From a virus (lineage: Duplodnaviria; Heunggongvirae; Uroviricota; Caudoviricetes): a stretch of DNA of 37,030 nt. Made by a program: the position numbers and the translations under genes. The notes under the pieces are model-generated. The model was not told the origin of the DNA. It worked only from the letters and a program-made list of their open reading frames with translations, and did not search any database. Where the stretch lies: positions 1 through 37,030 of the IMG/VR virus record IMGVR_UViG_2861069343_000007; one strand, given 5' to 3'. This document shows, piece by piece, positions 10,097 through 35,977 of the stretch. Numbering within the stretch: position 1 is the stretch's first letter; the number at the start of each line of letters is the position of its first letter.

Positions 10097-10108
10097 AAAT
10101 GACGGTAT

Positions 10109-15261: not shown

Positions 15262-15307
15262 AGGGAAAGGTTGCCATCAGGGGAAGAAAGGCGGCAGTGC
15301 TGCAACT

Positions 15308-15325
15308 TGTATCAGTGCTGATACA
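15308..15325 (-). promoter_or_regulatory. Ogr-type late promoter activator site (TGT-N12-ACA) upstream of V
   Basis: tgtatcagtgctgataca in the S/V intergenic region. Confidence 0.5.
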
Positions 15326-15329
15326 AAGA

Positions 15330-17098: not shown

Positions 17099-17099
17099 T

Positions 17100-17612: not shown

Positions 17613-17808
17613 AGTCCTCCCGCGAGATCTGCCCGTCGCGCAGAAGCTGGTAGGCTTTGTGTTTGTAGTACCAGTTGATAGCCAGCATCAGCACACCAAT
17701 CATCAGGCCGCCCAGCGTTGAGGCATCCTTGATGGACAAATCGCCCAGCCAGGCCAGCACAACGGCGATGCAGTACGTGATAAAGGCGCTGATTCGCTCA
17801 AGCGTCAT
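17593..17808 (-). CDS. Y: Holin (pinholin-like, two TM segments)
   Basis: 71 aa; two hydrophobic helices and charged C-terminus; immediately upstream of the endolysin. Confidence 0.75.
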   Translation of the reverse strand: MTLERISAFITYCIAVVLAWLGDLSIKDASTLGGLMIGVLMLAINWYYKHKAYQLLRDGQISREDYESINR

Positions 17809-17811
17809 AAT

Positions 17812-18015
17812 TCAGTCCCATAGCTGGACGGTCTGCACGGTGGTGGTGGTCGGAATGTCCGGCAACTCCACCTGCAGCCCGTGAGGTAAAAAGGGGCCGT
17901 ATTCGGCAAGCCCCGGATTTGCCTTCAGTACCTGCTCCGTGACACCCTGCGTGCGCCCGTAATGACGCCAGCAAAGCGCGTCCACCGTGTCATACTGATG
18001 CGCACGCACTTTCAT
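17812..18015 (-). CDS. X: Tail protein gpX
   Basis: 67 aa; P2 X-like (…YGRTQGVTEQVLKANPGLAE…). Confidence 0.85.
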   Translation of the reverse strand: MKVRAHQYDTVDALCWRHYGRTQGVTEQVLKANPGLAEYGPFLPHGLQVELPDIPTTTTVQTVQLWD

Positions 18016-18362
18016 CAGATAAGCTCCACTGTGCAGTGCGGCGCATCCTGCACCCGGCTGATGGCCCAGCGGGCGTCACGCCACAAATCACCGCTTGCTT
18101 CCGCCAGTTCCTCGCCCCGCTTCACACCGGACGCCGTGGCGTCATAGTCCTGGTAACGTTCGTTGAGCATGGCGCGTGCCCAGCAGTAAACCGCGTTGAA
18201 ATAGTGCTGAATGCGCTCACTTTTGCCGTCCAGCTGTTCCGCCGGAACCTCTGCCAGCGACGCATACCCCAGCATCTGCTGGCGTCTGCGAAACTCATAC
18301 AGCTCTGCGTTGACCTCCGAAATTGCCGACAGCGCAACCTGCTTTAAACGCGGCTGCGTCAC
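18015..18362 (-). pseudogene. L: Head completion protein gpL, N-terminally truncated (C-terminal ~2/3 only)
   Basis: 115 aa aligning with the C-terminal part of P2 gpL (…NAELYEF…DLWRDARWAISRVQ…); GTG start abuts the stop of the N fragment. Confidence 0.65.
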
Positions 18363-18715
18363 AGGTCCAGCTTCGCGTAGGTCAGCACCGTGTCAAAGTT
18401 GGTCTGCTCGCATTTATATTCCACATCGACCATCAGCGTCGGATCGACAGGTTCACGCTCTTTCGCGGTGGTGTCAGTGGTTCCGGCAATGGTGCTGCCA
18501 ACTCCCAGCCCCAGCAGCTGACCGGACTGCTCAGTCACTGGCGTGACGTTAATCAGCGTCAGGAAAGCGGCGGACTGCTGGATCTGGTCTTCCAGCGTCT
18601 GCTGCACAGACGGCTCCACGGTGAACTTGCTGGACAGTTCTTCAACTGCCACACCGTTCAGACGCGCCAGCTGCTGCAGGTAAGCGTTAAAAGCAAAGCG
18701 GGTATTCTTCTTCAT
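18359..18715 (-). pseudogene. N: Major capsid protein gpN, N-terminal fragment (118 aa of an expected ~350 aa)
   Basis: MKKNTRFAFNAYLQQLARLNG…FTVEPSV… matches the P2 gpN N-terminus; stop at the position where gpN normally continues. Confidence 0.65.
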
Positions 18716-18731
18716 CGGGTTTTGTGCTCCA

Positions 18732-19565
18732 TCAGCAATTGGTCAGAGTGTCAGCGGGGGCGTTACCGCCTGTTGCACGCTGGCGGTAGTCCTGGCGACT
18801 GTCTTCATGACTCAGCTTGTCCACCAGTTCGTTAAAGGCGGTTTGCTGTGCCTGCAGGGCAGTCTCCAGCTCAGACAGGCGTTCTTCCTGCTCAGACAGG
18901 GATTTTTCGGTGCGTGCGCTCAGGTTCTGCTGCTCAGTGGCGACCAGCTCCACGGCCTTATGCACATCAGAGAACCGGGCGTCATCGGACTGCTCTTTTT
19001 TGGTAAACAGCGCCGTGACGCGGGCAAACAGGGACGGTTTGTCGTCCTGGATTTCTTCCAGTTCGATCACCGTTTCCTCTGCAGCGGTAAAGAGATTGGC
19101 AGGATTCTGCTTGCGGTTTGCCAGCGGGTTATGGGCTGCACTGGCGCTGAATGTCAGCATTTCCGTACCCAGACTGGCAGGGTCATCAGTGGCAGCCAGG
19201 CCGACCAGATAGGCTTTGCCCGTATCAGCGAACTTCGGGCTGACTTCCATAGAGGTGAATAATTTCTGGCCTTTTTTCACCAGTTCCACCAGGGACTCCG
19301 TTGGCTCAACGTCGGCATACAGCGCCATCTTGCCTGCCAGCGGACCTTCCGTGATTTCTTCAGCAAACAGCGCCGTCACCTTGCCGTAGCGGTTAAAGGT
19401 GCTGTCCGGCAGATAAGACTTGATGTGCTCAAGGTTAATCAGCGCGGTATACACCGCCGGGTTGTAGCTGGCTGCCATCTGTTCCAGCCATTCACGCTGG
19501 ATTTCGCGTCCGTCGGTGGTGGCACCTTCCACCCCGATGCGAAAACGCTTTGCTTTCACTGTCAT
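18732..19565 (-). CDS. O: Capsid scaffolding protein gpO
   Basis: 277 aa; P2 gpO-like (…FRIGVEGATTDGREI…LVGLAATDDPASLGTE…). Confidence 0.85.
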   Translation of the reverse strand: MTVKAKRFRIGVEGATTDGREIQREWLEQMAASYNPAVYTALINLEHIKSYLPDSTFNRYGKVTALFAEEITEGPLAGKMALYADVEPTESLVELVKKGQKLFTSMEVSPKFADTGKAYLVGLAATDDPASLGTEMLTFSASAAHNPLANRKQNPANLFTAAEETVIELEEIQDDKPSLFARVTALFTKKEQSDDARFSDVHKAVELVATEQQNLSARTEKSLSEQEERLSELETALQAQQTAFNELVDKLSHEDSRQDYRQRATGGNAPADTLTNC

Positions 19566-19643
19566 GAGCCGTGCTCCGTTAGAAATAACTTACTGGAGCC
19601 TTATGGTTGCGGTGATGGGGGCAGTGAAACAATGCGCGGTATT

Positions 19644-19661
19644 TGTACCGACAACCACACA
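19644..19661. promoter_or_regulatory. Ogr-type activator site (TGT-N12-ACA) in the divergent O/P late promoter region
   Basis: tgtaccgacaaccacaca; near-identical half-sites to the FI site (TGTACCG…CACACA). Confidence 0.55.
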
Positions 19662-19707
19662 AACCGCAGGCGGGGAAAGCCTTCATTCAAGGCTGTAGGT
19701 TTGTGCC

Positions 19708-21474
19708 ATGAACACCACACTGACACCCGCAGATCTCGATCCCCGTCGGCAGGCCATGCTGCTGTACTTTCAGGGATACCGCGTAGCCCGCATTGCTGAA
19801 ATGCTGGGCGAGAAAGTTGCAACCGTTCACAGCTGGAAAAAACGCGACAAGTGGGGTGACTATGGGCCGCTGGATCAGATGCAGCTCACCACCGCCGCCC
19901 GCTACTGCCAGCTCATTATGAAGGAGCACAAAGAAGGGAAAGATTTCAAAGAAATTGACCTGCTGGCGCGCCAGTCGGAGCGCCACGCGCGGATCGGCAA
20001 GTTTAACAATGGCGGCAACGAAGCCGACTTAAACCCTAACGTCGCCAACCGCAACAAAGGGCCGCGCCGTCAGCCGGAAAAGAATGTTTTCACCGATGAA
20101 CAGATTGAGAAGCTGGAAGAAATCTTCCATTCCTCCATGTTCAACTACCAGCGCCACTGGTGGGAAGCAGGAAAAACCAACCGCATCCGTAATCTGCTGA
20201 AGTCACGCCAGATCGGCGCGACCTTTTACTTTGCCCGTGAAGCCCTGATTGACGCCCTGCTTACCGGACGTAACCAGATTTTCCTTTCTGCCAGTAAGGC
20301 ACAGGCTCACGTCTTTAAGCAGTACATCATCGACTTCGCCAAAGAAGTCGAGGTGGAGCTGAAAGGCGATCCGATGGTGCTTCCTAACGGGGCCACACTT
20401 TACTTCCTCGGCACCAATGCCCGCACGGCTCAGAGTTACCACGGCAACCTGTATCTGGATGAATATTTCTGGATACCGAAATTCCAGGAGCTGCGCAAAG
20501 TGGCTTCCGGTATGGCTATTCACAAAAAATGGCGACAAACCTATTTTTCTACGCCATCCAGCCTGACACACAGTGCTTATCCGTTCTGGTCCGGTGCGCT
20601 GTTCAACCGTGGGCGCAACAAAGCCGACAAGGTGGACATCGACCTGTCCCACAGCAATCTGGCCCCCGGCCTGCTGTGCGCAGACGGGCAATACCGCCAG
20701 ATAGTCACCGTGGAAGATGCAGTGCGCGGCGGCTGTAACCTGTTCGACCTTGACCAGTTGCGCATGGAGTACAGCCCGGACGAATACCAGAACCTGCTGA
20801 TGTGCGAGTTTGTGGACGATCTCGCGTCCGTGTTCCCGCTCAGCGAGCTGCAGGCGTGCATGGTGGACAGCTGGGAAGTCTGGACCGACTTTCATGCACT
20901 GGCGCTGCGCCCATTTGGCTGGCGCGAAGTGTGGATCGGTTATGACCCGGCAAAAGGTACGCAGAACGGCGACAGTGCCGGATGCGTGGTGCTGGCACCG
21001 CCAGCCGTGCCGGGCGGTAAGTTTCGCATTCTTGAGCGTCACCAGTGGCGCGGGATGGACTTTCGCGCCCAGGCTGACGCCATCAAAAAACTGACCGAAC
21101 AGTACAACGTGACCTATATCGGCATCGACTCAACCGGCGTTGGTCACGGGGTTTACGAGAACGTGAAAGCGTTTTTTCCTGCCGTCCGGGAGTTTGTCTA
21201 CAACCCCAACGTTAAAAACGCCCTGGTACTCAAGGCTTACGACATTATCAGCCACCGCCGTCTTGAGTTTGACGCCGGACACACCGACATTGCGCAGTCA
21301 TTTATGGCAATCCGTCGCGCCACCACCGCCAGCGGCAACCGCCCGACCTATGAAGCCAGCCGCAGCGAAGAAGCCAGCCACGCCGATCTGGCGTGGGCAA
21401 CCATGCACGCACTGTTTAACGAACCGCTGCAGGGCGAGTCCGCCAATACCAGCAATATTGTGGAGATTTTTTGA
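19708..21474 (+). CDS. P: Terminase large (ATPase) subunit gpP
   Basis: 588 aa; P2 gpP-like; divergent from O. Confidence 0.9.
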   Translation: MNTTLTPADLDPRRQAMLLYFQGYRVARIAEMLGEKVATVHSWKKRDKWGDYGPLDQMQLTTAARYCQLIMKEHKEGKDFKEIDLLARQSERHARIGKFNNGGNEADLNPNVANRNKGPRRQPEKNVFTDEQIEKLEEIFHSSMFNYQRHWWEAGKTNRIRNLLKSRQIGATFYFAREALIDALLTGRNQIFLSASKAQAHVFKQYIIDFAKEVEVELKGDPMVLPNGATLYFLGTNARTAQSYHGNLYLDEYFWIPKFQELRKVASGMAIHKKWRQTYFSTPSSLTHSAYPFWSGALFNRGRNKADKVDIDLSHSNLAPGLLCADGQYRQIVTVEDAVRGGCNLFDLDQLRMEYSPDEYQNLLMCEFVDDLASVFPLSELQACMVDSWEVWTDFHALALRPFGWREVWIGYDPAKGTQNGDSAGCVVLAPPAVPGGKFRILERHQWRGMDFRAQADAIKKLTEQYNVTYIGIDSTGVGHGVYENVKAFFPAVREFVYNPNVKNALVLKAYDIISHRRLEFDAGHTDIAQSFMAIRRATTASGNRPTYEASRSEEASHADLAWATMHALFNEPLQGESANTSNIVEIF

Positions 21475-22499
21475 TGGGAAAGAGTAAGAAAAACCGCGCT
21501 GCGGCGACGAATCAGATCCAGCATAAAAACCAAACTTCAGTCGAAGCATTCAGCTTCGGTGATCCCGTTCCTGTTCTGGACCGCCGCGAACTGCTGGACT
21601 ATGTGGAATGCGTACAGACAGATCGTTGGTATGAGCCGCCAGTGAGTTTCGACGGGCTGGCGCGCACCTTTCGCGCCGCCGTGCATCACAGCTCACCGAT
21701 TGCAGTAAAGTGCAACATTCTGACCAGCACCTACATCCCTCACCCGCTGCTCAGCCAGCAGGCTTTTTCACGTTTTGTGCAGGACTATCTGGTATTTGGT
21801 AACGCCTACCTGGAGAAACGCACGAACCGCTTCGGTGAAGTTATCGCCCTTGAGCCTGCTCTGGCAAAATACACCCGACGCGGGTTAGACCTGGATACCT
21901 ACTGGTTTGTGCAATACGGTATGACAACCCAGCCGTATCAGTTCACGAAAGGCAGCATTTTTCACCTGATGGAACCGGATATCAACCAGGAGATCTACGG
22001 CCTGCCCGGTTATCTTTCTGCCATTCCGTCAGCCCTGCTCAACGAGTCCGCCACGCTGTTCCGCCGCAAGTATTACATTAACGGCAGTCATGCAGGCTTC
22101 ATCATGTACATGACCGATGCCGCGCAAAACCAGGAGGATGTGAACAACCTCCGCAACGCAATGAAAAGCGCCAAAGGACCGGGTAACTTCCGCAACCTGT
22201 TTATGTACTCGCCTAACGGCAAAAAGGATGGGCTTCAGATCATTCCTCTGTCAGAAGTCGCGGCGAAGGATGAGTTTCTGAATATCAAGAACGTGAGCCG
22301 GGACGACATGATGGCGGCGCACCGCGTACCGCCGCAAATGATGGGGATTATGCCTAGCAATGTCGGGGGGTTTGGGGATGTGGAGAAGGCTAGTAAGGTA
22401 TTCGTAAGAAACGAATTGATGCCCCTGCAGAAACGATTGCAGGAACTAAATAACTGGTTGGACGAAGAAGTGCTCAATTTTTCAACCTATGAGCTTTAG
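21471..22499 (+). CDS. Q: Portal protein gpQ
   Basis: 342 aa; P2 gpQ-like; start overlaps P stop. Confidence 0.9.
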   Translation: MMGKSKKNRAAATNQIQHKNQTSVEAFSFGDPVPVLDRRELLDYVECVQTDRWYEPPVSFDGLARTFRAAVHHSSPIAVKCNILTSTYIPHPLLSQQAFSRFVQDYLVFGNAYLEKRTNRFGEVIALEPALAKYTRRGLDLDTYWFVQYGMTTQPYQFTKGSIFHLMEPDINQEIYGLPGYLSAIPSALLNESATLFRRKYYINGSHAGFIMYMTDAAQNQEDVNNLRNAMKSAKGPGNFRNLFMYSPNGKKDGLQIIPLSEVAAKDEFLNIKNVSRDDMMAAHRVPPQMMGIMPSNVGGFGDVEKASKVFVRNELMPLQKRLQELNNWLDEEVLNFSTYEL

Positions 22500-22535
22500 T
22501 TTTAAAACGAAGACCATTAGGTCTTCGCTTTATTT
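22500..22535. terminator. Bidirectional terminator between convergent Q and retron RT
   Basis: 8-bp stem cgaagacc / ggtcttcg (loop atta), flanked by ttttaaaa upstream and ctttattt downstream; RT stop codon lies in the loop. Confidence 0.55.
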
Positions 22536-23479
22536 AAAGGGTTCTTTCCATATTTTTTTTCTAATTTGCTAATATAAGCTATTAATCTTCTATGGCTTTT
22601 TGAATCCACACTTAAAATAAATGACAACCATCCCCTAACGTGTTCTATCTCAGAAGATTTACCGCAAAATATATGATGTATCTTTGCTCTAATTTCTTTA
22701 TATTTTTCTCTACCTATCCCAACTTTCTCTTGTGAAATAACTAAACCTGTAACTTTCCTCTGACTACGAGGCCCACTAATACAAGTTTTTTTTGAGTTAA
22801 TAACCAATCCTTCACTTGGGATTATAGAAAATAAAAAATCACGTGCTTTAACAACCTTTTTCATAGACTGTGCAGATAAGGTGAGATCATCGGCATATCT
22901 CGTATATATCAAGCCCCGACTACCTGCATAGCCCTGAATACGATAATCAAGTTTTGAACATATTAGATTAGCTAATTTAGGTGATGATGGAGCACCTTGT
23001 GGTAGCAGATTTTTATAACAACATATTTTTGTCAAAACTGAAGATATTAGTCGATTATAACCAAGAGAATGGAACACTCCAAAAACTTTGTTAGCAGTTA
23101 AACTTGGGAAAAAATCCTCCAAATCAATATTCAGTATAAAGTTTGCCCCAATATGCGGGGTAGCATTATTCAAAATAGATTGGTGCTTTTCAAATCCAAT
23201 AGAAAAAGGAGATGACGACAGTTTATCTAAAATGTTACGTAGAACCCATCCTTGTAAGGCTTTAAGTTCTCGAGAAGGTTGGTAAATGGTTCTCATTCTC
23301 TTCTCTGGGCCTTTCTTTTCTACAGTGTAGATCCTATAGCGAAAATCAGCTGTATAGATTAACAACCGAAGTGTTTCAACAGATATGCGAGTCGCCTTAG
23401 ACATGTCATGCAAATTGTTCATGACAGGTAGGCCGAGATTTCTCAATCTAAAAGTGTTCAAATATTCAGCGGATTTCAT
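22517..23479 (-). CDS. ret: Retron reverse transcriptase (Retron-Eco1 / Ec86 RT)
   Basis: 320 aa; RT motifs including YADD (YTRYADDLTL); start codon 7 nt downstream of the a2 repeat of msr-msd. Confidence 0.93.
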   Translation of the reverse strand: MKSAEYLNTFRLRNLGLPVMNNLHDMSKATRISVETLRLLIYTADFRYRIYTVEKKGPEKRMRTIYQPSRELKALQGWVLRNILDKLSSSPFSIGFEKHQSILNNATPHIGANFILNIDLEDFFPSLTANKVFGVFHSLGYNRLISSVLTKICCYKNLLPQGAPSSPKLANLICSKLDYRIQGYAGSRGLIYTRYADDLTLSAQSMKKVVKARDFLFSIIPSEGLVINSKKTCISGPRSQRKVTGLVISQEKVGIGREKYKEIRAKIHHIFCGKSSEIEHVRGWLSFILSVDSKSHRRLIAYISKLEKKYGKNPLNKAKT

Positions 23480-23485
23480 GAAAGT

Positions 23486-23654
23486 TGCGCACCCTTACGT
23501 CAGAAAAAACGGGTTTCCTGGTTGGCTCGGAGAGCATCAGGCGATGCTCTCCGTTCCAACAAGGAAAACAGACAGTAACTCAGATTCAATGCAGGATGCC
23601 GAAACAACATCCAGAGGTTGACCTTAATGATAAACCTCTCGCTAAGGGTGCGCA
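23486..23654 (-). ncRNA. msr-msd: Retron msr-msd non-coding RNA (Ec86 msDNA template)
   Basis: Plus strand 23499..23585 reads gtcagaaaaaacgggtttcctggttggctcggagagcatcaggcgatgctctccgttccaacaaggaaaacagacagtaactcaga, recognised as Ec86 msd; flanking inverted repeats a1/a2 TGCGCACCCTTA at 23643..23654 and 23486..23497. Confidence 0.9.
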
Positions 23655-24565
23655 TACGGAATCTTATCATAGTTAAATGTTGATTTTCTACGGTTTTCAA
23701 AATTCATAATCTCAAGCCGCAATCGGTCAAGTGTCTTTCTATCAAAGACGCTCCTAACATAGCTAGCCCCCAAAGCAGTGACCTGATAACCATCAGTCAT
23801 TTGAAGTATTTTTCGTTCATTTATTAGACGAGAAACAACGGATCTAACAATAATTTTAGATAAAACATCATCTTGCTTTATCGCTTTAAAAGCTAGTTCA
23901 CACAGTGTGCGGTAGTTGACACTATCCAGTAAATAGATACAAGGCAATAGAAACCGCTCTGCGTATAATATATTTCCAATATCTTTTGATACTTTATTTT
24001 CTTTCCTAACCTGCTTAATAGATGCCATTAATTTTTTATATAATCGTAATTTTCTGGCAACATCAATAGATGAATCACACATTTCTTTTAGTTCATTTGA
24101 ACTACAACGCAAAACAGATTTTGAATTAAACTTACGCAACAGGCGAACAGGACCATAGTTAATAAAGCTACGTTTTGATTTAAATTTTGCATCTTGAATG
24201 CAAATCAACTTTCTCCTTAAGTTTTCATTATTAGAGAACGCACCAAGCTCTGTGAAAGACCCCGGACTTTCAGGAAATAAAATTATTACATCGACAGCTT
24301 CAGCCAGAATATTTTCTAAACTTAAAAGGCTATGCTGCCCTTGACCAGCCAAAAGATCATCAAATAGATCTTCTGGATAAAATATATCAACATCACTGAA
24401 CTTTGCTAAAAATTGTGATAATTGATGACGCCAAGATTGATGATTAGCAACGTCACCACCACATAGAAAAATGGTTATTTTAATATTAGCTCCTCGATAG
24501 AAGCCTTTCTTTGTGAGATGTCCTATAAGCTGTTGTTGCTGCTCATCGGTAAATTTTTTATTCAT
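23642..24565 (-). CDS. Retron-Eco1 accessory effector (nucleoside deoxyribosyltransferase-like domain protein)
   Basis: Immediately upstream of msr; start assigned to MNKKFTDEQ (ATG 24565..24563, GGAG 4 nt upstream) though in-frame ATGs exist upstream (24595, 24754); stop overlaps a1. Confidence 0.75.
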   Translation of the reverse strand: MNKKFTDEQQQQLIGHLTKKGFYRGANIKITIFLCGGDVANHQSWRHQLSQFLAKFSDVDIFYPEDLFDDLLAGQGQHSLLSLENILAEAVDVIILFPESPGSFTELGAFSNNENLRRKLICIQDAKFKSKRSFINYGPVRLLRKFNSKSVLRCSSNELKEMCDSSIDVARKLRLYKKLMASIKQVRKENKVSKDIGNILYAERFLLPCIYLLDSVNYRTLCELAFKAIKQDDVLSKIIVRSVVSRLINERKILQMTDGYQVTALGASYVRSVFDRKTLDRLRLEIMNFENRRKSTFNYDKIPYAHP

Positions 24566-24637
24566 AATCTCCCCGCTTTTTTCTACTTTATACATCAAGT
24601 TATGAATAGATCCAATCTCCATACCCCATGGCGCGCG

Positions 24638-24656
24638 CTCGTATCCCCGCCACGCC
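24638..24656. other. Candidate cos site (cohesive end)
   Basis: Minus strand reads GGCGTGGCGGGGATACGAG, resembling the P2 cohesive end GGCGAGGCGGGGAAAGCAC as recalled; inside a short GC-rich patch between two AT-rich islands. Confidence 0.4.
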
Positions 24657-24697
24657 TGCCCGCTTTGTGTAGTGGTTTTCATGCACCTGCATGACAT

Positions 24698-24722
24698 AAG
24701 TAAAAGCCCGCCAGAACTGGCG
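24698..24722 (-). terminator. Hairpin with U-tract on the minus strand in the cos-proximal region
   Basis: cccgccag..ctggcggg stem (24706..24722) followed on the minus strand by a T-run. Confidence 0.35.
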
Positions 24723-24874
24723 GGACTGAGCAAAAACGATCCTTTTGCGATCATTCATTTTCATGCGCTATAGTCATGCAACAAACGCATACGAACCATA
24801 TGGTTAGATTACTCATCAAGTCAGATGGATTTTCAGGCAGATTGCCACAGCAATTGTAAAGGAGCGAGATTGAA

Positions 24875-25876
24875 ATGGGTGGAGAGACTTCGGCTATACA
24901 ACGAGTCGCGGGTAAGATTTCTGATGATATTTTCTCAGTGTTCAAATGGGATCGTGCCGCTAGAGCGGACATGAATTGGGATTGTTGCCAAGAGGCTCAT
25001 TCCAAGAAAACACATCCAAGCGATGTTGTATTTTTCTACATAGATCCATATGAGGAGGAAATGGTCTATCTCAACACAGACCTCAAAAGCTATGCAGAAG
25101 GTACTATTGGGAAAAAAATAGTCGAGGGAGCTTTAACATCGCTTGCTTTAGCTACCGAATGTGCAAATGTCAGTGAAGAATGGCGATTGAAATATGTTCA
25201 TGATGATTCTTTAGGTTATAACGTAAGAGGGTTATTATTCTTATATAACCATGATAATTTATATGATAAAGACTTCTATGAGAATATTACAAAAAAATTA
25301 GATCACTCATCTATAAATTGCCCTCCAAACATCAAACTACATTTGCTTGACCCTTATAAAATATCAGATTTGATAAACATATCTTCTGACATAACTAAGT
25401 TAATTGGTTCAGGCAAACTTCCTCAACCTGATAAGTTCACATATTATTATCCAGATCTTTCCCTAACAAGAATAAAGCACCCTATTAATCAGACAACACC
25501 TGCAACAATTGAATTATTAACATCACCATACATTATAATAAAGCATGAGGCTTTCAGTTGGCTCAGGGATAAAAACCCTGAGGGATATGTTGTTTATTAC
25601 AATCAACCGGGGGATTCAGTAGACGAATTCGTTTACTTCTTTGATATGTTATCAACTTATCAGATATTAACCGAAGGTAAACCAATCGTATTACGCCATT
25701 GTCACATTCACCCAAATGAAAATGCCATTCATCATTTTGAAAGAGCGAAAAAGAAATACAGCACAGACTGGCTCTTAGGCGAGGATGAAAGACTTTTTCT
25801 TAAAATTGACTTCGACAAGACAGACAAAATTGTTGTTGAATATAATCTTGAACAAATCGGCATGGAGCAACGATAA
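24875..25876 (+). CDS. Hypothetical protein, first gene of three-gene cargo operon
   Basis: 333 aa; AGGAG upstream; AT-rich codon usage unlike the phage backbone; no family recognised by eye; possible PD-(D/E)xK-like pattern VVFFYID…NTDLK (speculative). Confidence 0.7.
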   Translation: MGGETSAIQRVAGKISDDIFSVFKWDRAARADMNWDCCQEAHSKKTHPSDVVFFYIDPYEEEMVYLNTDLKSYAEGTIGKKIVEGALTSLALATECANVSEEWRLKYVHDDSLGYNVRGLLFLYNHDNLYDKDFYENITKKLDHSSINCPPNIKLHLLDPYKISDLINISSDITKLIGSGKLPQPDKFTYYYPDLSLTRIKHPINQTTPATIELLTSPYIIIKHEAFSWLRDKNPEGYVVYYNQPGDSVDEFVYFFDMLSTYQILTEGKPIVLRHCHIHPNENAIHHFERAKKKYSTDWLLGEDERLFLKIDFDKTDKIVVEYNLEQIGMEQR

Positions 25877-26955
25877 TGGCTAAAAAACTATATTTCGCAA
25901 CTGATAAAAATATTTATGATGCATTACATCATAAAAGGATAACCGCTGCAAAGTTGCATGAATTATTGTTGAATCGAGGTGTGTTTTTATCACCAGAACT
26001 CGACAAGGAAATACTAATCGAGGAAATATCCAAACTTCCTCACGGATTTAATGAATTAGAACACATAAAAAAACTGGTCAAAACATATGACCCAAGGGAA
26101 AGCACTACTAGTGTGAGCTTCCAAACCTCAACAAATCAGGCCGAATTAAAAAGTGCTGCTGAAGCACTAAAAAAAACATGCTCCCCTAGTAAAGGTCAAA
26201 GCCTGAATATTGTAGCTAAAAAAGATGGCTCGCTTACAGTAGAATACAAATATGAAGAAATAGACCTGTCTAAAACTGCATTACGTCAGATCGACAAGCG
26301 GAATGTTATAATAGAACTTCGCCCTGGAGCTGACAAAGTTGAAGTACGTATGCCTCAAAACCCCGAGGCAAAAAAAGTTATTGAGAGCTTGCAAAACGAG
26401 CTATCTAAAATCAAGTCCGAACCTATCGAGCGCTTCGAAATATCATTACTAGCAATAACTGATCCTACATTGCGAAGTCAGTTTTTTCAGGAATTAATGA
26501 ATGGTCTACGCGGTTATGAGACTGATGACGTAACAAAAGTCGAATTAAATCGCAGTACTGATGCTAGTGAGGATGAAGACAAGGAAGAAACTATTGATAC
26601 CGGATTTGTTAAGAAAGCTGTCCTTAATGGTGAAGGGGTAAATAGTTCAGCTATATTTTCTCAACTACATGAGAAAGGTTATTATATCGGGCGTATTGCA
26701 TGGTCTTCAAAGCCGACAAGTGGAATTGGAGACAGAATCAACGTCGAAGCATTTTTCAAAGACTCAGAAAAATGCTGTGACTTTGCCTATCAAATTAAAG
26801 GTATAAACAATCAAAAAGAAGACGGTTTCAATGTAACCATTCGCGCGGCAACAGCACAAGAGAAAAAACATATTAGTGAATTAATTGAGTCCGCCGCTGA
26901 AAATGCCTATAATATAATAATAGGATCAGAGGTGAACGAAGATGAAAAAGGTTAA
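25876..26955 (+). CDS. Hypothetical protein, second gene of three-gene cargo operon
   Basis: 359 aa; start overlaps upstream stop (TAATG); charged and Lys/Glu-rich; no recognisable motif. Confidence 0.7.
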   Translation: MAKKLYFATDKNIYDALHHKRITAAKLHELLLNRGVFLSPELDKEILIEEISKLPHGFNELEHIKKLVKTYDPRESTTSVSFQTSTNQAELKSAAEALKKTCSPSKGQSLNIVAKKDGSLTVEYKYEEIDLSKTALRQIDKRNVIIELRPGADKVEVRMPQNPEAKKVIESLQNELSKIKSEPIERFEISLLAITDPTLRSQFFQELMNGLRGYETDDVTKVELNRSTDASEDEDKEETIDTGFVKKAVLNGEGVNSSAIFSQLHEKGYYIGRIAWSSKPTSGIGDRINVEAFFKDSEKCCDFAYQIKGINNQKEDGFNVTIRAATAQEKKHISELIESAAENAYNIIIGSEVNEDEKG

Positions 26956-27625
26956 ATGGCTTAAGTTAAACATACGGCTTGAGTTTGAAACAGCCGTTAG
27001 ACGTCTTTCTCTTGATTCTTTTACAGAGGATAAAGGGAAAGGGTTCATTTTTGATAAAATACGCCATGATTTTGCAAATGGTCGCTTTGTCGAGCGTATT
27101 GTTTATCATGATAAAATATTAAGCTTTGACGGAAGCGAAACTACCGTTGAAAGAATCGAATATCGCACCACAAATTTTAGCGTGGCTTTAGACTCTCTTC
27201 CTGTAATGCAGATTACTAACCCACCCAGAACTTTAAAGCCTTTTTCGCAGGCTTTGGTAAAAAATCTTGGCTTAGGTGTTAGTTTGGAAGAAATTGACAT
27301 AAACCCTATAGACTGGCTTAATGAAATATCTTCAAGTGTAAATATCAATTTAACACAACTTGATATTTCAAGGGTTAGAGTTTCTGATTACGCCACAGCT
27401 AAAATGCAAATAATTGGCAGCAATGATCTTAGGAAGTATTATAAAGAAGAATTAGAGGGTAAAAAAATAAGAATTGACAGGCTTGTTTGCTCTGTTAATT
27501 CATTAGAATATTCCGGTAAGCTCAAGATCACCAATAGCGGCCTTGCTTATATTGATGTTAGAAATGAGAATGAGTTTACGAAAATCGTTTTTGATACGTT
27601 AAAAAAAGTCACCCTTCAATCATAG
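26942..27625 (+). CDS. Hypothetical protein, third gene of three-gene cargo operon
   Basis: 227 aa; 14-nt overlap with upstream gene; no recognisable motif. Confidence 0.7.
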   Translation: MKKVKWLKLNIRLEFETAVRRLSLDSFTEDKGKGFIFDKIRHDFANGRFVERIVYHDKILSFDGSETTVERIEYRTTNFSVALDSLPVMQITNPPRTLKPFSQALVKNLGLGVSLEEIDINPIDWLNEISSSVNINLTQLDISRVRVSDYATAKMQIIGSNDLRKYYKEELEGKKIRIDRLVCSVNSLEYSGKLKITNSGLAYIDVRNENEFTKIVFDTLKKVTLQS

Positions 27626-27681
27626 ATGGCTTATAAGGAGTTACTTCACCTAACGCCTCGCCTTACTCGTTGTTCAACCTC

Positions 27682-27712
27682 GTAGGCGTCAGAATCAAGT
27701 TCTGACGCCTAC
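27682..27712 (+). terminator. Strong stem-loop between convergent cargo operon and dinI-like gene
   Basis: Perfect 13-bp stem gtaggcgtcagaa / ttctgacgcctac with 5-nt loop. Confidence 0.5.
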
Positions 27713-27720
27713 AATGTTTC

Positions 27721-27954
27721 TTAATGCAGCCAGCTATCGTCCTCCCACACCTTCTGCATAATTTTCATCACTTGTTTTCTTTCTTCGTCCAGTTGCAGTC
27801 CGGTCAGTTCCACACCGTTAGAGCTACCTTTGCGGATACGAATTACCGTTTTGGGATACAGGGGGCGCAGATTGCGGTAAAGCTCGGATTCAAGGGCGTC
27901 CAGGGTAGACTGGCTAATTTTCTGCTCTTTATCGATCATTATTTCAATGCGCAT
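27721..27954 (-). CDS. DinI-family protein (Tum C-terminal-domain-like)
   Basis: 77 aa from MRIEIMIDK; resembles DinI (MRIE…, conserved acidic C-terminus …WEDDSWLH); GAGGTGA Shine-Dalgarno. Confidence 0.75.
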   Translation of the reverse strand: MRIEIMIDKEQKISQSTLDALESELYRNLRPLYPKTVIRIRKGSSNGVELTGLQLDEERKQVMKIMQKVWEDDSWLH

Positions 27955-27964
27955 AAAAGTCACC

Positions 27965-28153
27965 TCAGCTGATGACATCCATTGAGCGGTTGTATTCGTG
28001 GCTTCTGATTTTTGCCATGAGTTCATCAGTCAATTCAGAAACCCACTGCAGAGCCAGCCCCTTCTCTTCATCACTACACTCACTAGCCGCTACAAGCTTA
28101 AGAAAAAAATCAATGCGCTGGAGCTTCAAAGACTCCAAAAAATAGTCCTGCAT
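27965..28153 (-). CDS. Small hypothetical protein co-transcribed with the dinI-like gene (possible Tum N-terminal part)
   Basis: 62 aa from MQDYFLESL; strong AGGAGG Shine-Dalgarno; sits 44 bp downstream of a LexA box. Confidence 0.55.
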   Translation of the reverse strand: MQDYFLESLKLQRIDFFLKLVAASECSDEEKGLALQWVSELTDELMAKIRSHEYNRSMDVIS

Positions 28154-28306: not shown

Positions 28307-30721
28307 TTAATACAGATCCCGCCACTTATCATCTTCCTGCAAACGCTGGTTCCGATAGAAGATACGCAGGCCTGCTCCTGACGGAATACTGCCGCCGCGA
28401 AGGAGTAAATCGACCTCTTTCTCGCTGCCATCAAATCCTCTGGACTTCAGTTCATAGACGAGCTGCTGTCGTTGATGGTCTGTAATTCGCTGTTTGTAGT
28501 CTCTACGCCGTTTCGGTTTCACCAGGCGTAACCTTGCAGCCAGTTCCCGGCGTTCTTTTTTGTTCATACTGTGCAGGTAATCGTGCAACTCCTTGTCATC
28601 CATACGGGTGATATCCGTTCTGGTATCCCCATCAGCTGATTTGTCTTTCCCTTGTTGGTACAAATTTTCAGCAAGGGGACAGTTATTGCCACGAGTCCAA
28701 GGGGCGCAAGCGCCCTGGTCGGCTACCGCCTCCTGAACGTCAACGGCCTTACGAACCATTTTCCACTTCACTGCATGAGTGCAGATCTTGCCCTCTGAAA
28801 TGGGTGACCAGATGCCATAAATACGAATACCGTGATCGCCATAGGCGGTCGGCTCTTCGTTAATTTCATAAGCGGTTCTGATAAGGTGATATTTGCGGGG
28901 AACCAGTACGCCGCCCTGCTTCATGATGTAGGTGGCAAAACAACCAGCATCAGCAGCAGCCAGGATGGCATCAAGACGCGGGTCATCCAGTACCGGCGCA
29001 CCTGCTTTTTTGTCACCCGGTTGCCTTGCCGCCTGACCAGCCAGCAAGCGAAGTTCACGGTAAGCCTGACGCCCCGGAATGCCAAAGAAGCGGAATTGCT
29101 GAACACGATGCAGAGACGCCCAGGCATTAACGTATTCAGCGTTATCACGCAGGGATTTACCCGTTTCCTTGCTGATCTCGCCAGCCAGACCACGCCCGTC
29201 AATGTTCTTACTGATGTATTTCGCGATGTAGCTTGTTGGCGTACCTTTGCGCGGGTTTATCAGCTCAGACTTAAAGCGTGGTCCCGTGTTATTACCCAGC
29301 TCCTCGCGGTCTTCACGAATGGCAAACTTACGCAACAAAGCAGTAATGGTGCGGCGATCTTTTTTGCGCATAAAACACAACAGGTGCCAGTGAACTGTAC
29401 CGTCATGATGCGGCTCAGCCACCCGCACGCCATACCAGCGCAATCCGGCTTTGTGCATCGCCTTACGAAATGCAGCAAACATGCCGACCAGATAATCACT
29501 GCTTTGTCTTACCGTCGTATTTGTCCAGGTCGGGTTGGGCCTGCCGTTATTTAGCGTGGAATGGAAACGTGACGGACAGGTGATGGTGTAGAAAACGGCG
29601 CAGTCACCGCGCATTTCCGCGATAAGCTCCAGACCTTTAACACAGGCCATCATCTCATTGCGGCGATGCGCAGGGTTGCTGCTGCTGGCGTTTACCACAT
29701 CCTCCATGTCCAGCGTGTCGCCGTCTTCGTTCACCAGTTCATGAGAACGGAAAAACTCCAGCGACTTACGGCGCTGCTCACGTTTATGCATCACGGCTTC
29801 ATAGCTGACATAGGGAGATGCTTTTTTGCTGACCAGGCAAACAGCACGCAACTGCTCTTCCCGCCATTCGCAACGCATCTTCCATAATTTCCGGTACCAC
29901 CAGTCGGCGCACAACATACGCGCCAGCGAACCCGGAATGAGTTCATAGGGCACGGGTTTACGGCGGTTTCTTTTCCGGCGGAGTTGCTCAAACGCAGGCG
30001 GTATGACATCCAGTCGCAGGGTTTCCGCAGCCACCTTTTCCCATGTCTTGCGGATTTCTTCTGGCTTAACATCATCGGTGGCGTACAAATCACCACAAGC
30101 GGCATCAAGACACATGCTCATATGCGCAGCGACAAGAGTAGACAGGCGTTTCACCTGATCCTGACTCATTTCAGGCAAGTTCAGCAGGCCGTCCAGCCCT
30201 TCATGGCTTGCCATAAAGCGAAAAGAAGTGGATAGCTGACTCTCGCGTACATGCTCCAGTCGTTCCAGACATGGCTTAATCGTCTCACGCAAATAGCGGG
30301 AATAAGCCTTTGGCCTGCCCAGGCTGCTGAAGTATTCAATACGTTGCATCAGCGGCTTGCTGATATGGGAAGGCTGGGCGTTAACGTCCGCCAGTATGAC
30401 CATGTCCGGATTAAAACGCTGCTGCTCATGCGCCAGCTTTGCCCGGCTAATGAGCTTATCCTGCTCCATTTCGCGTTGGACAGGATCACGGGATTCATTA
30501 AAGAAATAACGCTCCCAGACCTGATCACTCAGTACCTCGAGGCGCAGTTGTTCCTGCTCGTTATCGGCAGCGTACAGAGTGATCAGGTTTGAAAGCGCAG
30601 AAACCGGCGCAACTTCCGCCGGGTCCAGATAAGGGTTAATAGCCTTTTTCGGGCTGTTCCATGAGAATGCTGCGGCGGCCTCGTTAAAGCCGCTGCAGTT
30701 GTTCATATCAGCATGGCTCAT
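28307..30721 (-). CDS. A: Replication initiation protein gpA (rolling-circle nickase)
   Basis: 804 aa; P2/186 A-like. Confidence 0.9.
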
Positions 30722-31575
30722 GCACGCACTCCGTACACGGCAGAACTATCCACGCCACGCGAAGGATCAAATCCCACCCAGCAGCGCACCCCAGAAACAG
30801 CGATGATTTCTGCTGCAAATTTACTCTCACCAGCTGCTACGCCGATGCTGCGTTTTGCCTTGATGTAGTGGTGAGTAAAATTGCGATACAGCGAACGGAT
30901 CAGGGATGTGTCACTGTTAGAAACAATGACCGGATGTCCTTCTGATGACCGATGTTCAAGAACGGATGCCAGGTGATACTGGTCATCTTCAGTGAAGCCG
31001 TCAGTGTGATAACCGGAAAACGTGCCGTCATACGGCGGATCGCAATACACCACATCCCCCGCCTTCAACATCGCCAGCGTTTCATCAAAGCTGGCGCAGA
31101 TAAACGTTGCCCGCTGAGCTTTTTCTGCAAATGCGCGAATTTCTTTTTCAGGGAAATACGGATTTTTATAATTACCGTAGGGAATGTTGAAATGCCCGCT
31201 CTTGTTATAGCGACATAAACCACGGTAACCGTGACGATTGAGATACAGGAAATATACCGCTTTCATGAAATCAGTAATTTCAGTGGAGTAATTAAACTCC
31301 TGCCTTATGTTGTAATAAGCCACCTCCCTGTTTGCTTCCTCAAACAAAATTCTGGCGCTAGATATAAACGCCTCACAATCAGCAGCAACCTTTTTATAGA
31401 GGTTGATTAAATCAGGATTAATATCCGCAACCAGATAGCTGGGATAATCCGTCTCCATCATCACTGCACAGGAACCCGCGAAAGGTTCAACCAGTCGCGG
31501 GCCAGCAGGAAGATGTTTTTTCAGTTCGGACATAATGGCGGTTTTATTTCCCGCCCATTTCAGGATGGTGCTCAT
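30718..31575 (-). CDS. dam: DNA adenine methyltransferase (orphan Dam-like MTase)
   Basis: 285 aa; DPPY catalytic motif ([12 protein letters not shown]) and N-terminal SAM-binding region; overlaps A start. Confidence 0.85.
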
Positions 31576-31799
31576 ACAGCACCTCCGTTGTAATGTTTAC
31601 CTTTCAGCTCTGCGATTTCCTGACAGGTAATGCAAAGCTGCACACCCGGAATGGCGCGGCGGCGTGCTGGCGGAATTGGCGCTTCACACTCAATGCAAAG
31701 CACGCGGGACACGCCCGGTGTTTTAGCACGGGCAGCACAGATATGGCGCTGGCGTTCTTCTTCAACGCGCTGCTGTACGAGATCCATTGCATCAGCCAT
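31572..31799 (-). CDS. TraR/DksA-family C4 zinc-finger protein
   Basis: 75 aa; CIECEAPIP…CITCQ four-cysteine motif. Confidence 0.75.
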   Translation of the reverse strand: MADAMDLVQQRVEEERQRHICAARAKTPGVSRVLCIECEAPIPPARRRAIPGVQLCITCQEIAELKGKHYNGGAV

Positions 31800-32038
31800 T
31801 AGTGGATCTCCTGCGCTTCGTTCTGGATTGCTTCAGCAGTCACACGCAGCAGTTCTGCCGCTTCGACGTGGTTTAGCTGGCGGGATGTGATATGACACGC
31901 CAGGCTATCAAGGCGAGCTGCCATTGCTTCAGCCCTTGCCCGGCGTTCTTCCAGACGAGCCTCTGTCAGTAAAATATTAAGCCCTGCGTCATCCGGTCCG
32001 GTTTTAGTCGTGAGGGTTTCAATATTACGCATAATCAA
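31799..32038 (-). CDS. Hypothetical phage early protein
   Basis: 79 aa; in the early operon upstream of the TraR-like gene. Confidence 0.5.
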   Translation of the reverse strand: MIMRNIETLTTKTGPDDAGLNILLTEARLEERRARAEAMAARLDSLACHITSRQLNHVEAAELLRVTAEAIQNEAQEIH

Positions 32039-32099
32039 TTCTCCTGAATTTAGATAAAGGGATGCCCGGCGGGTTTACGCCATTAATTTCATTAGTTGG

Positions 32100-32441
32100 T
32101 TAATTCGGCATGGTTAGCCGTCTGGGAAATAAGCTCACCACTGCACGAAAATGATTCATTGCTTTAATCAGCTCCCGCTTTTCGTCAGTAGTCAGCTCAT
32201 TAATGCTGATGCTATGACGTTCAGCTGGAATTTTTGCCATAAAGAATATAGCAGCCAGTGCCCGTTTATTTTGTTCATTATTGATATCCCGTGGGTCACG
32301 CATATCTTTAATAAACCGCTCAAGCTCTGACTCAATATTCAGGCCAAAAACTTTCGCCCTTAATTCCGCTATGTGATTAAGTCCATTCAGGCGTTCGCCG
32401 GGGCTTAATGGAACAGTCGCCGCAGCGCCATTAATTGCCAT
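32100..32441 (-). CDS. Hypothetical phage early protein
   Basis: 113 aa; early operon between cII and A. Confidence 0.5.
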   Translation of the reverse strand: MAINGAAATVPLSPGERLNGLNHIAELRAKVFGLNIESELERFIKDMRDPRDINNEQNKRALAAIFFMAKIPAERHSISINELTTDEKRELIKAMNHFRAVVSLFPRRLTMPN

Positions 32442-32463
32442 AATTCATATCCCCAAAACGCAA

Positions 32464-32688
32464 CTATCGTTCTTTGTTCTTACGGTAACGCTCAAGGGGA
32501 GATACATTTTTTCGTACCGTCTCTTTAACCTGCTCTCCCCGTAAAAACGTCCCATCCTTTAACGTGAAAAAGTAACTGCCATCGCCCGACAACGACGGAT
32601 AACAACAGAGCAAATCATCTTCAGGTACTGAATAACTATCCCCTCTGTAACGAAACTGATAAACCACTTCACTTTCTGCCGCATACAT
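32464..32688 (-). CDS. Hypothetical small protein (frame ambiguous with the overlapping ORF)
   Basis: 74 aa; overlaps 32559..32852 in another frame. Confidence 0.3.
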   Translation of the reverse strand: MYAAESEVVYQFRYRGDSYSVPEDDLLCCYPSLSGDGSYFFTLKDGTFLRGEQVKETVRKNVSPLERYRKNKER

Positions 32689-32852
32689 TTGGACTTTCTC
32701 CGTTTCCTCGTGGTCACTTCAGACAGCAATTCATCTTGTGAATAACATGGATGCCAGCGTTTACCATCCTCACCCATGATCCAGCCGTGACCGTAGTGCA
32801 TTGCCGGGCTTTGTTTTACCAGCAGCGATGCAAATGATGGTTCTTTCGTAAG
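32559..32852 (-). CDS. Hypothetical small protein directly downstream of cII (frame ambiguous)
   Basis: Start taken at MLTKEPSF, just after the cII stop; position of 186 fil/dhr-type early genes. Confidence 0.3.
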   Translation of the reverse strand, partial: LTKEPSFASLLVKQSPAMHYGHGWIMGEDGKRWHPCYSQDELLSEVTTRKRRKSKCMRQKVKWFISFVTEGIVIQYLKMICSVVIRRCRAMAVTFSR

Positions 32853-32862
32853 CATAAGCACC

Positions 32863-33381
32863 TCACAGCAAACCGAATGAAGCACCGAGGCCAGTCACGG
32901 TATCAACTGCACTCGCCATCGCAGGATTAGCCTGTAAACGGGCCTGCAATGAAACAGCAGCCAACGCCATCAGTCGTGTTACAGAGTTAATGCTGCTGAT
33001 CGCATCACGACGACCTGTGCTGGTTTTCACATCACCAGATACCGCACCAGCAGCAACACGCCCAATCTCTGCGGTTGCACTCATGACGTAATGCGGCAGT
33101 TTCTCTTTTGCTACCTCATTAATCGGTACGCATGGCAGGCAGTGAATCTGAGCCAGAAAACCATCTACCAGCGTTGAATCTTCAGTCAGATCGGTAAGCA
33201 GCCAGATTTCTGGTGCGGTTAATAAATGAGGTTGAGCAGGGTTCAACTTGTTTCGCAGAATCTGCACATTCATTCCTGCACGTCCTGCCAGCTGCACCAG
33301 GTTGTGGCGCAGTGCGAATGCACGACAGGCTTCATCAAAATGTGGATGTTTGGAAACTTGGTAATCAAACATGGTTTTCAA
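32863..33381 (-). CDS. cII: CII-like lysogeny establishment activator (186 type)
   Basis: 172 aa; strong resemblance to 186 CII (…[19 protein letters not shown]…[29 protein letters not shown]…). Confidence 0.85.
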
Positions 33382-33640: not shown

Positions 33641-33785
33641 AAGGCAACATTCCTTCTAGATATGGCTTGTGGCGAGCCGTTGTTTGTCGTGATTAGTAGT
33701 GAAGACTCCAAAAGAAGACTTCTGGTTCAACTTTAAGATCGCTTTTGGAATCTGTCAACGAATTTTGGATTTCTTTGGAGGATTT
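33641..33785. promoter_or_regulatory. Genetic switch region with expected face-to-face pR/pL promoters
   Basis: Intergenic region between divergently placed apl and cI; arrangement inferred from phage 186, elements not mapped. Confidence 0.4.
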
Positions 33786-34355
33786 GTGGATTTCAATAGC
33801 GGCGGTAAGAAAACCATAGAACGTTTGGTTGAAGCATACGGGTTCGGTACCCGTCAGGCTCTCTGTGATCATTTAGGTGTTTCTAAGAGCACCATGGCAA
33901 CGCGTTATATGCGTGATATTTTTCCGGCAGATTGGGTAATCCAGTGCGCCCTTGAAACGGGTACCTCGCTTAATTGGCTAACAACAGGGCATGGTTCAAA
34001 GCAAGCATCAGCAAATACAAATACTATAGAAGTAGTAAAATATTTATTGTCTGATGGAGCATTGCAGGAAGACGGTTTTTATATTTTTGATAAGGGATTT
34101 CTACCCTCTACGTTTAAAAAACCTTTTGTCATCACAGATAACAATTCTGAATTTATTTGTGATAAAGAATTTGATGATATACGTGATGGTAAATGGGTAA
34201 TAAGTATTGATGGCGAAATAACAATCCGCGACATCACTCGTTTACCCGGTGGAAGAATTTTCGTTGAAGGTGGAAACAGAGCCTTCGAGTGCAAGATAGA
34301 AGATGTTGAAATAATTGGAAAAATTATAAGCTTAACAGTTAAGTATGTTAGATAA
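33786..34355 (+). CDS. cI: CI immunity repressor (186 type)
   Basis: Resembles 186 CI (…EAYGF…CALETG…NWLTTGHG…); start placed at GTG 33786 with GGAGG 6 nt upstream (ORF-track ATG 33699 would add 29 aa). Confidence 0.8.
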   Translation: MDFNSGGKKTIERLVEAYGFGTRQALCDHLGVSKSTMATRYMRDIFPADWVIQCALETGTSLNWLTTGHGSKQASANTNTIEVVKYLLSDGALQEDGFYIFDKGFLPSTFKKPFVITDNNSEFICDKEFDDIRDGKWVISIDGEITIRDITRLPGGRIFVEGGNRAFECKIEDVEIIGKIISLTVKYVR

Positions 34356-35898: not shown

Positions 35899-35977
35899 TA
35901 TGTATGGCTATACAAATTCATACATTGACACTGGTTATACATACAGTAAAAATGCTCTCCACTGGAGGGCATTTTTT

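Follow-up and report, generated by a model that had tools for sequence, protein, structure and literature searches.

The sequence analysed here, hereafter the window, is the whole 37,030-nt stretch of the IMG/VR virus record IMGVR_UViG_2861069343_000007, and all coordinates given are window positions. On its plus strand, three adjacent open reading frames (ORFs) encode proteins of 333 (24875-25876), 359 (25876-26955) and 227 (26942-27625) amino acids, which I call Hp1, Hp2 and Hp3 after their counterparts in the published anti-phage system 3HP. The first two genes share 1 nt in the junction TAATG, the second and third overlap by 14 nt, and a Shine-Dalgarno-like purine run lies upstream of each of the three start codons; the genes are translationally coupled. 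The guanine-plus-cytosine (GC) content of the three-gene block is 0.363, against 0.553 in the structural-gene backbone (3500-22500) and 0.504 in the replication region (28307-33000), and the AT-rich island is broader than the operon, reaching from about 22500 to 28000 and including a retron. An earlier note on this DNA, made from the letters alone, had described the coupled reading frames, the AT-richness of the block and its bracketing by a GC-rich cos patch and a perfect 13-bp hairpin, and all of these observations are confirmed. Terminase and the portal gene Q lie on one side of the operon, and DinI, gpA, Dam, CII and CI on the other, which places it, in a P2-like prophage, in the stretch from cos to the replication gene A.

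The cos-like GC-rich patch (24632-24700, no strand assigned) forms the left border of the functional insert published for this system, pFR109, and is itself contained in that insert. On the minus strand, positions 24638-24656 are identical to the 19-nt cohesive end of P2 at 14 of 19 positions. A second GC-rich element, the hairpin CCCGCCAGTTCTGGCGGG, is found at 24707-24724, just to the right of the patch, with a T-rich tail on the minus strand and a terminator-like score. About 100 nt 5' of the Hp1 start codon, a consensus scan returned the candidate sigma-70 promoter TTGCGA-18-TATAGT (24745-24774, plus strand), a pattern match only, with 9 of 12 consensus positions; it lies within the insert that Rousset and co-workers expressed from its native promoter. 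Downstream of the operon, at 27682-27712 (no strand assigned), the hairpin GTAGGCGTCAGAA-TCAAG-TTCTGACGCCTAC contains a perfect 13-bp inverted repeat, to which the terminator scan assigned 14 pairs. It separates the operon from gpA and from the convergent DinI-like gene (27721-27957, minus strand), and is probably a terminator for both directions.

The three proteins match the PADLOC models PDLC03004 (Hp1, E-value 1e-239), PDLC03005 (Hp2, 3e-248) and PDLC03006 (Hp3, 2e-157) from end to end, and their genes are adjacent on one strand in the order Hp1-Hp2-Hp3, which is the gene order of 3HP. In a string comparison, all three are 100% identical to the proteins of pFR109, the "hp + hp + hp" construct from E. 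coli E1114 (Rousset et al. 2022, Cell Host Microbe, PMC9122126, Table S2A), and the protein accessions annotated on identical genomic copies (WP_000508501, WP_001085272 and WP_000756244) are present in Table S5A of the same study. The DNA agrees as well. From 24632 onward the window matches the pFR109 insert exactly, with 24632-24848 covering the cloned upstream region, and the site of the reverse cloning primer is found at 27713-27732, just past the 27682-27712 hairpin. The first pFR109 primer has no match in the window, as the sequence upstream of cos differs there. Thus the window and pFR109 agree in their proteins, in the P2 hotspot next to cos, in the upstream sequence (from 24632 on) and in the terminator, and only their neighbourhood differs, the window having a type II-A retron across cos where the pFR109 insert starts differently.

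That the operon is the 3HP system, named Rst_3HP in DefenseFinder and Hp1/Hp2/Hp3 in PADLOC, is on these sequence matches virtually certain. The earlier note had considered it an undescribed system of unrecognised proteins, and had named a homology search as the means to refute this; that search assigns all three proteins to a known system, so that this part of the note is refuted. This very cassette has been in the literature since 2022, when it was cloned, tested and catalogued. Rousset and co-workers surveyed the hotspot between Q and A in P2-like prophages and cloned eight further systems from it, and pFR109, under its native promoter, protected E. coli against P1, and only against P1, of eight phages tested (PMC9122126). 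The cloning and phage challenge that the earlier note had suggested are therefore already published for an identical sequence. The authors saw "no clear predicted domain" in the proteins and offered no mechanism (PMC9122126). General searches add little: the operon proteins match only families of unknown function in PHROGs, and PDB sequence searches with profiles of Hp1, Hp2 and Hp3 returned chance-level matches only.

A mechanism is suggested by the relationship of Hp1 to GAPS4a, the PD-(D/E)xK deoxyribonuclease (DNase) of the anti-phage system GAPS4 (Mahata et al., bioRxiv 10.1101/2023.03.28.534373 and 10.1101/2025.09.07.674715). Every Hp1 homolog listed (185 clusters in total) carries a precomputed Pfam match to PF26115 (PDDEXK_GAPS4), one UniRef entry is named "GAPS4 PD-(D/E)XK nuclease domain-containing", and newer PGAP annotation calls Hp1 a "PD-(D/E)XK nuclease domain-containing protein". 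My own local scans of Hp1 and Hp3 gave nothing above threshold in Pfam and no match in NCBIfam. Reference sequences came from the supplement of bioRxiv 10.1101/2025.09.07.674715, where File S1 holds a FASTA of GAPS4a homologs and the AlphaFold3 CIF files supplied both RiKo proteins, GAPS4a and GAPS4b, as well as GAPS4b from strain MAVP-R. With hhalign, the Hp1 family matches seven GAPS4a sequences at 97.4% probability (E-value 1.5e-11), and a broader Hp1 profile matches GAPS4a at 97.9% (6e-13) across 291 columns and so along almost the entire protein; the broad Hp1 hidden Markov model (HMM) finds GAPS4a-RiKo with an E-value of 2.8e-15. By these profile comparisons Hp1 is a full-length homolog of GAPS4a.

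The catalytic residues point in the same direction. An alignment of Hp1 with 30 homologs (31 sequences, with identities as low as 34%) has among its invariant residues H42, H47-P48-x-D50, D69-x-K71-S72-Y73, C96-A97, G119, L121-F122, N125 and D127, and thus all three PD-(D/E)xK catalytic residues, D50, D69 and K71. The hint of such a motif in the first protein, which the earlier note had raised, is borne out by this conservation of H47-P-x-D50 and D69-x-K71, while the HCHIH cluster near the C-terminus (residues 310-314), which it had also pointed out, is not conserved among the 31 sequences, and I reject it as a metal site. In the alignment with GAPS4a, the Hp1 core H47-P-S-D50 stands opposite H46-G-I-D49, with D50 opposite the catalytic D49; the substitutions D49A (RiKo) and D59A (MAVP-R) abolish GAPS4 defence (GAPS4 preprints). 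The second half of the core, D69-L-K71, stands where GAPS4a has S69-A-K71, and since D69 replaces S69, Hp1 has the canonical (D/E)xK motif and not the SxK variant. The PD-(D/E)xK fold of Hp1 is thus assigned by homology to GAPS4a, and Hp1 is very probably the catalytic DNase effector of the system.

For Hp2, the evidence of a relationship with GAPS4b, the second GAPS4 protein, is fainter. The NCBIfam model antiphage_GapS4b finds Hp2 with an E-value of 2.2e-5, residues 14-314 being colinear with 8-329 of the 355 model positions, and finds 2 of 26 Hp2 homologs only; PF26110 (GAPS4b_N) is precomputed on 11 of 43 Hp2 homolog clusters and on the Vibrio ortholog. A broad Hp2 profile aligns with four GAPS4b sequences over 219 colinear columns (hhalign, E-value 3.4e-4), the broad Hp2 HMM finds GAPS4b MAVP-R at 1.8e-6, and the two proteins share their place in the gene order and are similar in size. 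Distant homology of Hp2 and GAPS4b is likely from these comparisons. The AlphaFold2 model of Hp2, with a predicted local distance difference test score (pLDDT) of 84.7 and a predicted template modelling score (pTM) of 0.74, shows a helical domain at the N-terminus, about 70 residues long, and an alpha/beta body after it. The former (about residues 1-70) would be the GAPS4b_N domain and is possibly SAP-like, the latter appears RdgC-like in the model, and Hp2 is predicted to be a ring-forming scaffold and DNA sensor that bears the nuclease. The eukaryotic family DUF4518 weakly matches all 26 Hp2 homologs over residues 10-90 (best E-value 1.3e-7, below the cut-off), which I judged uninformative.

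Hp3 matches only its PADLOC model and one PHROG family of unknown function in the libraries scanned. A HMMER search of 1.84 billion representative proteins returned 705 relatives at an E-value of at most 1e-3, and the best 150 of these 705 are stand-alone proteins, mostly of 200 to 236 amino acids; the family has the invariant basic motif N93-PPRTLKPF-101. The structural model of Hp3 is confident (pLDDT 92.3, pTM 0.83), and Foldseek ranks RdgC of E. coli and Pseudomonas aeruginosa on top (E-value 6e-7, probability 1.00, TM-score 0.54). RdgC, a toroidal binder of double-stranded DNA, is the top structural match of Hp2 and of Hp3 alike. It is described as a toroidal DNA-binding dimer in PMC1885664 and PMC2965237, and the E. 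coli protein as an inhibitor of RecA function through DNA binding. The likeness is one of fold: the RdgC structures (PDB 2owl and 2owy; E. coli and P. aeruginosa) have no detectable sequence similarity to Hp2 or Hp3, with about 10% identity, Hp3 is about 75 residues shorter than RdgC, and Hp2 has its additional N-terminal helical domain. The Pfam RdgC model does not match Hp2, Hp3 has no Pfam match at all, and the PDB sequence search returned no RdgC match for either protein. A recent duplication giving rise to Hp2 and Hp3 is rejected, as their profiles show no sequence similarity, and the relationship between the two is therefore structural only; a profile comparison of Hp3 with GAPS4b showed no similarity either. 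On the strength of its model, Hp3 would be a stand-alone RdgC-like protein and an extra component beyond canonical GAPS4.

This third gene separates the two systems. The order and strand of the three genes are kept in Vibrio fluvialis, where Hp1, Hp2 and Hp3 are 42%, 32% and 24% identical to those of the window, in Delftia and in a metagenome contig, and the same order is found in every IMG/VR locus with enough downstream DNA, down to 31% Hp1 identity. In most of these loci all three genes are recognised by HMM, and in three the third ORF, of 225 to 253 amino acids, is too diverged for the HMM. Canonical GAPS4 loci, by contrast, as on plasmids of Ewingella and Pantoea (GAPS4a 96% and 84% identical to GAPS4a-RiKo, respectively), consist of two genes only, for proteins of 308 and 385 amino acids, followed by unrelated genes on the opposite strand. 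The most divergent three-gene loci, L059, L061 and L063, were considered as intermediates towards canonical GAPS4 and rejected, as they have no NCBIfam GapS4 match, and the FASTA of homologs compiled by the GAPS4 authors shows no Hp1-type motif in its first 400,000 characters. Because the NCBIfam GapS4a model matches some members of the Hp1 family only, and these far below the cut-off, 3HP is not GAPS4 proper as curated. By sequence comparison it is a sister clade, set apart from GAPS4 by a third subunit that was added and is conserved.

The two systems are alike in that Hp1 is homologous to GAPS4a over its full length with the catalytic aspartate aligned, in that Hp2 appears to be a distant relative of GAPS4b with the same N-terminal domain and in the same gene order, and in that both are cargo of mobile elements; both are probably ring-borne DNases that are activated by DNA breaks and abort the infection. 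They differ in the number of genes (two, or a fused single gene, in GAPS4, and three in 3HP), in the nuclease motif (HGxD...SxK in GAPS4a, and the canonical HPxD...DxK in Hp1), in the known range, which is narrow for 3HP (P1) and broad for GAPS4, and in that the 3HP proteins score far below the curated NCBIfam cut-offs for GapS4a and GapS4b. Neither GAPS4 paper mentions 3HP, and literature searches found no published 3HP mechanism and no published link between 3HP and GAPS4; the link is implicit only in the recent Pfam domain assignments.

The cassette is exchangeable cargo of the cos-to-A hotspot in P2-like prophages, in agreement with the earlier note, which had considered it variable anti-phage cargo of this slot. 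It occurs in 18 of 5426 complete E. coli genomes, in 13 of them at an identity of at least 99% and in five at about 86%, and it is present at 96% identity in four Klebsiella P2-like phage records; Rousset and co-workers list the system with a count of 116 in 18,150 P2 hotspot loci (PMC9122126, Table S5B). The cargo next to it varies by genome: CH10508 has none, PEC399 has ParA, and FDAARGOS_433, whose sequence is 100% identical to the window segment 24700-27720, has a retron. In E. coli O6:H16 M9682-C1 (NZ_CP024275.1, 1002310-1006884) the 3HP match lies in three pieces that overlap two IS1 transposase genes, and the operon appears to be disrupted by this insertion sequence.

An IMG/VR scan with the Hp1 profile yielded 79 loci, with Hp1 identities from 100% down to 31%, and in 56 of these a P2-type portal, gpA or DinI is found within 4 kb in either orientation. 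Three P2-like prophages among them (L049, L057 and L067), whose portal and gpA are 94 to 97% identical to those of the window, carry a very divergent 3HP variant (Hp1 identity 37 to 39%) in the same slot between Q and A, inverted. Carriers of such an inverted variant include E. coli-type P2 prophages with a portal identity of 94 to 95%. With backbones that are nearly identical and Hp1 proteins that are not, distant alleles of one system family have been swapped at one hotspot. The cassette also travels on other mobile elements, as recombinases and integrases adjoin it outside P2-like phages: a 3HP-type operon lies directly downstream of a large serine recombinase in V. fluvialis (3174-4724 of locus L003) and of a tyrosine integrase in Delftia (2690-3820 of locus L005).

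What is known of GAPS4 allows a mechanism to be proposed for 3HP. In GAPS4, two GAPS4b molecules form a ring and bear GAPS4a on helical domains, giving a 2:2 complex, the DNA of phage and host alike is degraded, viability is lost at high multiplicity of infection, and activation by nalidixic acid is read as sensing of DNA breaks or linear DNA (bioRxiv 10.1101/2025.09.07.674715); with DNA breaks as the trigger, no escape mutants could be isolated, and expression of the system carries an autoimmunity cost that depends on its level (GAPS4 preprint). By analogy, 3HP would be a three-component relative of two-gene GAPS4, in which Hp1 is the effector, a PD-(D/E)xK DNase homologous to GAPS4a, and Hp2 the counterpart of GAPS4b, docking the nuclease with its N-terminal helical domain while its RdgC-like body forms a ring able to encircle double-stranded DNA. 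Hp3, the second RdgC-like protein, could complete that ring as a heterodimer with Hp2, or be a separate clamp that gates activation. The complex would stay inactive until free DNA ends or breaks arise during infection, for which injected linear phage DNA, replication or packaging intermediates and damaged host DNA are candidates, and activated Hp1 would then degrade phage and host DNA without selection, aborting the infection. I consider it probable, with considerable reservation, that 3HP is such a GAPS4-type DNase of three components, switched on by DNA ends or breaks, and for the GAPS4-like trigger taken by itself the chances seem slightly better than even. Computational support covers the homologies, the conservation of the catalytic residues, the folds and the three-gene synteny; the formation of a complex, activation by DNA ends and unselective DNase activity are carried over from GAPS4 by homology. 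The sole step demonstrated experimentally comes from others, namely the protection of E. coli against P1 by the identical cassette.

Several observations weigh against this interpretation. The nuclease activity, the complex formation and the trigger of 3HP are predicted by homology, and on the side of sequence the homology has weak points: Hp1 has no NCBIfam GapS4a match, some members of its family reaching 27 to 36 bits against a cut-off of 270, while Hp2 scores 23.5 bits with GapS4b against a cut-off of 300, is not significantly similar to GAPS4b-RiKo in BLASTP, and reaches an hhalign probability with GAPS4b of only 38%. An RdgC-like fold at about 10% identity is no proof of ring formation or DNA binding, and the same fold also scores against the kinetochore proteins Iml3 and CENP-L, which are protein-protein modules. 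Finally, 3HP protects against one of eight phages, P1, where GAPS4 protects against many; a generic sensor of DNA ends would be expected to act more broadly. This narrow range leaves room for two other explanations, a phage-specific trigger and a brake that raises the activation threshold.

The first of these keeps Hp1 as the effector but has it triggered by a particular phage protein or process and not by DNA ends in general; Hp2, Hp3 or both would sense a factor encoded by P1, such as a recombination, anti-RecBCD or replication protein, and the RdgC-like fold would then be a protein-binding module. I regard this as rather unlikely, in view of the homology with GAPS4, where DNA breaks are the trigger and escape mutants could not be isolated, of the double-stranded DNA-binding toroid that is the top structural match of both Hp2 and Hp3, and of the invariant basic motif PPRTLKPF in Hp3. 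In the second, the DNase formed by Hp1 and Hp2 is constitutively dangerous and Hp3 restrains it as an inhibitor or antitoxin-like brake, holding the complex off the chromosome or occluding the ring until infection removes it, so that 3HP would amount to a GAPS4 core with a safety subunit. The autoimmunity cost of GAPS4 would give such a brake a purpose, the third gene, absent from canonical GAPS4, is always kept and translationally coupled in the 3HP clade, and RdgC itself is described as an inhibitor of RecA function. However, coupled 1:1 expression is equally compatible with a structural subunit, and to this explanation I give somewhat less credit still. A non-defence role of the cassette in the prophage, in DNA packaging, recombination or plasmid-like maintenance, with the P1 phenotype incidental, might be read from its position next to cos and from the description of RdgC as a recombination-associated protein, but is most improbable, given that most P2-like prophages lack the cassette (as do all but 18 of the 5426 E. 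coli genomes), that it also occurs outside prophages beside integrases and recombinases, that it confers defence when cloned alone, and that it is homologous to a validated defence nuclease.

Returning to a DNase activated by DNA ends, a more far-reaching version of it is possible but doubtful, in which 3HP is a widespread three-component branch of a GAPS4 superfamily whose DNA-sensing ring is built from two RdgC-like proteins, the nuclease carrier Hp2 and Hp3. If so, the DNase Hp1 would be licensed by a Ku-like, asymmetric clamp once this had slid onto a DNA end, the threshold or the specificity would depend on Hp3, which would explain the narrow P1 range, and RdgC-like toroids would be a recurrent sensor module of defence systems, found in GAPS4b, Hp2, Hp3 and RexA.

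As a discovery, the operon itself is of low value, as DefenseFinder or PADLOC would recognise it in any run. What is gained concerns the mechanism, since three hypothetical proteins without a predicted domain in the literature searched are here linked to the DNA-break-activated DNase GAPS4, and both non-catalytic subunits, Hp2 and Hp3, have in their models the same fold as RdgC, a toroidal DNA-binding protein. That 3HP is related to GAPS4, that two of its subunits are RdgC-like and that its third gene is conserved are new, if modest, insights, and they could give rise to experiments: catalytic D50 and K71 are predicted to be needed for defence, 3HP is predicted to raise the sensitivity to nalidixic acid, and Hp2 and Hp3 are predicted to form a ring. 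A comparison of the two-gene and three-gene versions of one machine could reveal the role of the added clamp subunit.

Other defence systems resemble 3HP in part. RexA of the RexAB exclusion system of phage lambda (PDB 8twq, PMC11077077) is an RdgC-like DNA-binding component, although the match is weak and its partner is the membrane protein RexB and not a nuclease. Shedu and Hachiman, with PD-(D/E)xK-type nucleases, share the concept of a nuclease effector that is switched on by DNA ends or damage, a comparison that the authors of the GAPS4 preprint drew for GAPS4; they are likened to 3HP here by concept and not by homology, and their sensor modules differ. The old and tin genes of P2 occupy the same genomic slot and also act in exclusion between phages, but nothing links the proteins of the window to them, PADLOC having matched only Hp1, Hp2 and Hp3.

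The window carries further cargo. The earlier note had placed a retron next to the operon, and a type II-A retron is indeed found across cos from 3HP, between the portal gene Q and cos (22517-24563, minus strand), with a reverse transcriptase (RT) at 22517-23479 (PADLOC RT_II-A, E-value 8e-128) and an NDT-like effector from 23642 to about 24563 (NDT_II-A, 5e-94), both on the minus strand; the 162-nt gap between them (23480-23641) probably encodes msr/msd. PGAP labels the identical retron genes "retron St85 family". None of the 79 IMG/VR 3HP loci has this retron within 4 kb. At 34567-35898, on the plus strand, a KAP-family P-loop NTPase of 443 amino acids matches the PADLOC defence candidate PDC-S20 (E-value 7e-171) and, more weakly, PifA and QatA; its gene is AT-rich as well, with a GC content of about 0.31 to 0.35. 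Its position between the CI repressor (33699-34355) and the integrase (35900-37030) gives this prophage a third slot for cargo, and the window thus presents compact, stacked cargo in one P2-like prophage, with the retron and 3HP flanking cos and the candidate KAP NTPase near the integrase.

An Rfam scan of the whole window found no match in the operon or the retron, its sole match being the small RNA RybB (RF00110, 105 bits) at 2700-2778 on the plus strand, and the presence of RybB indicates that the prophage is flanked by bacterial chromosome in the left part of the window.

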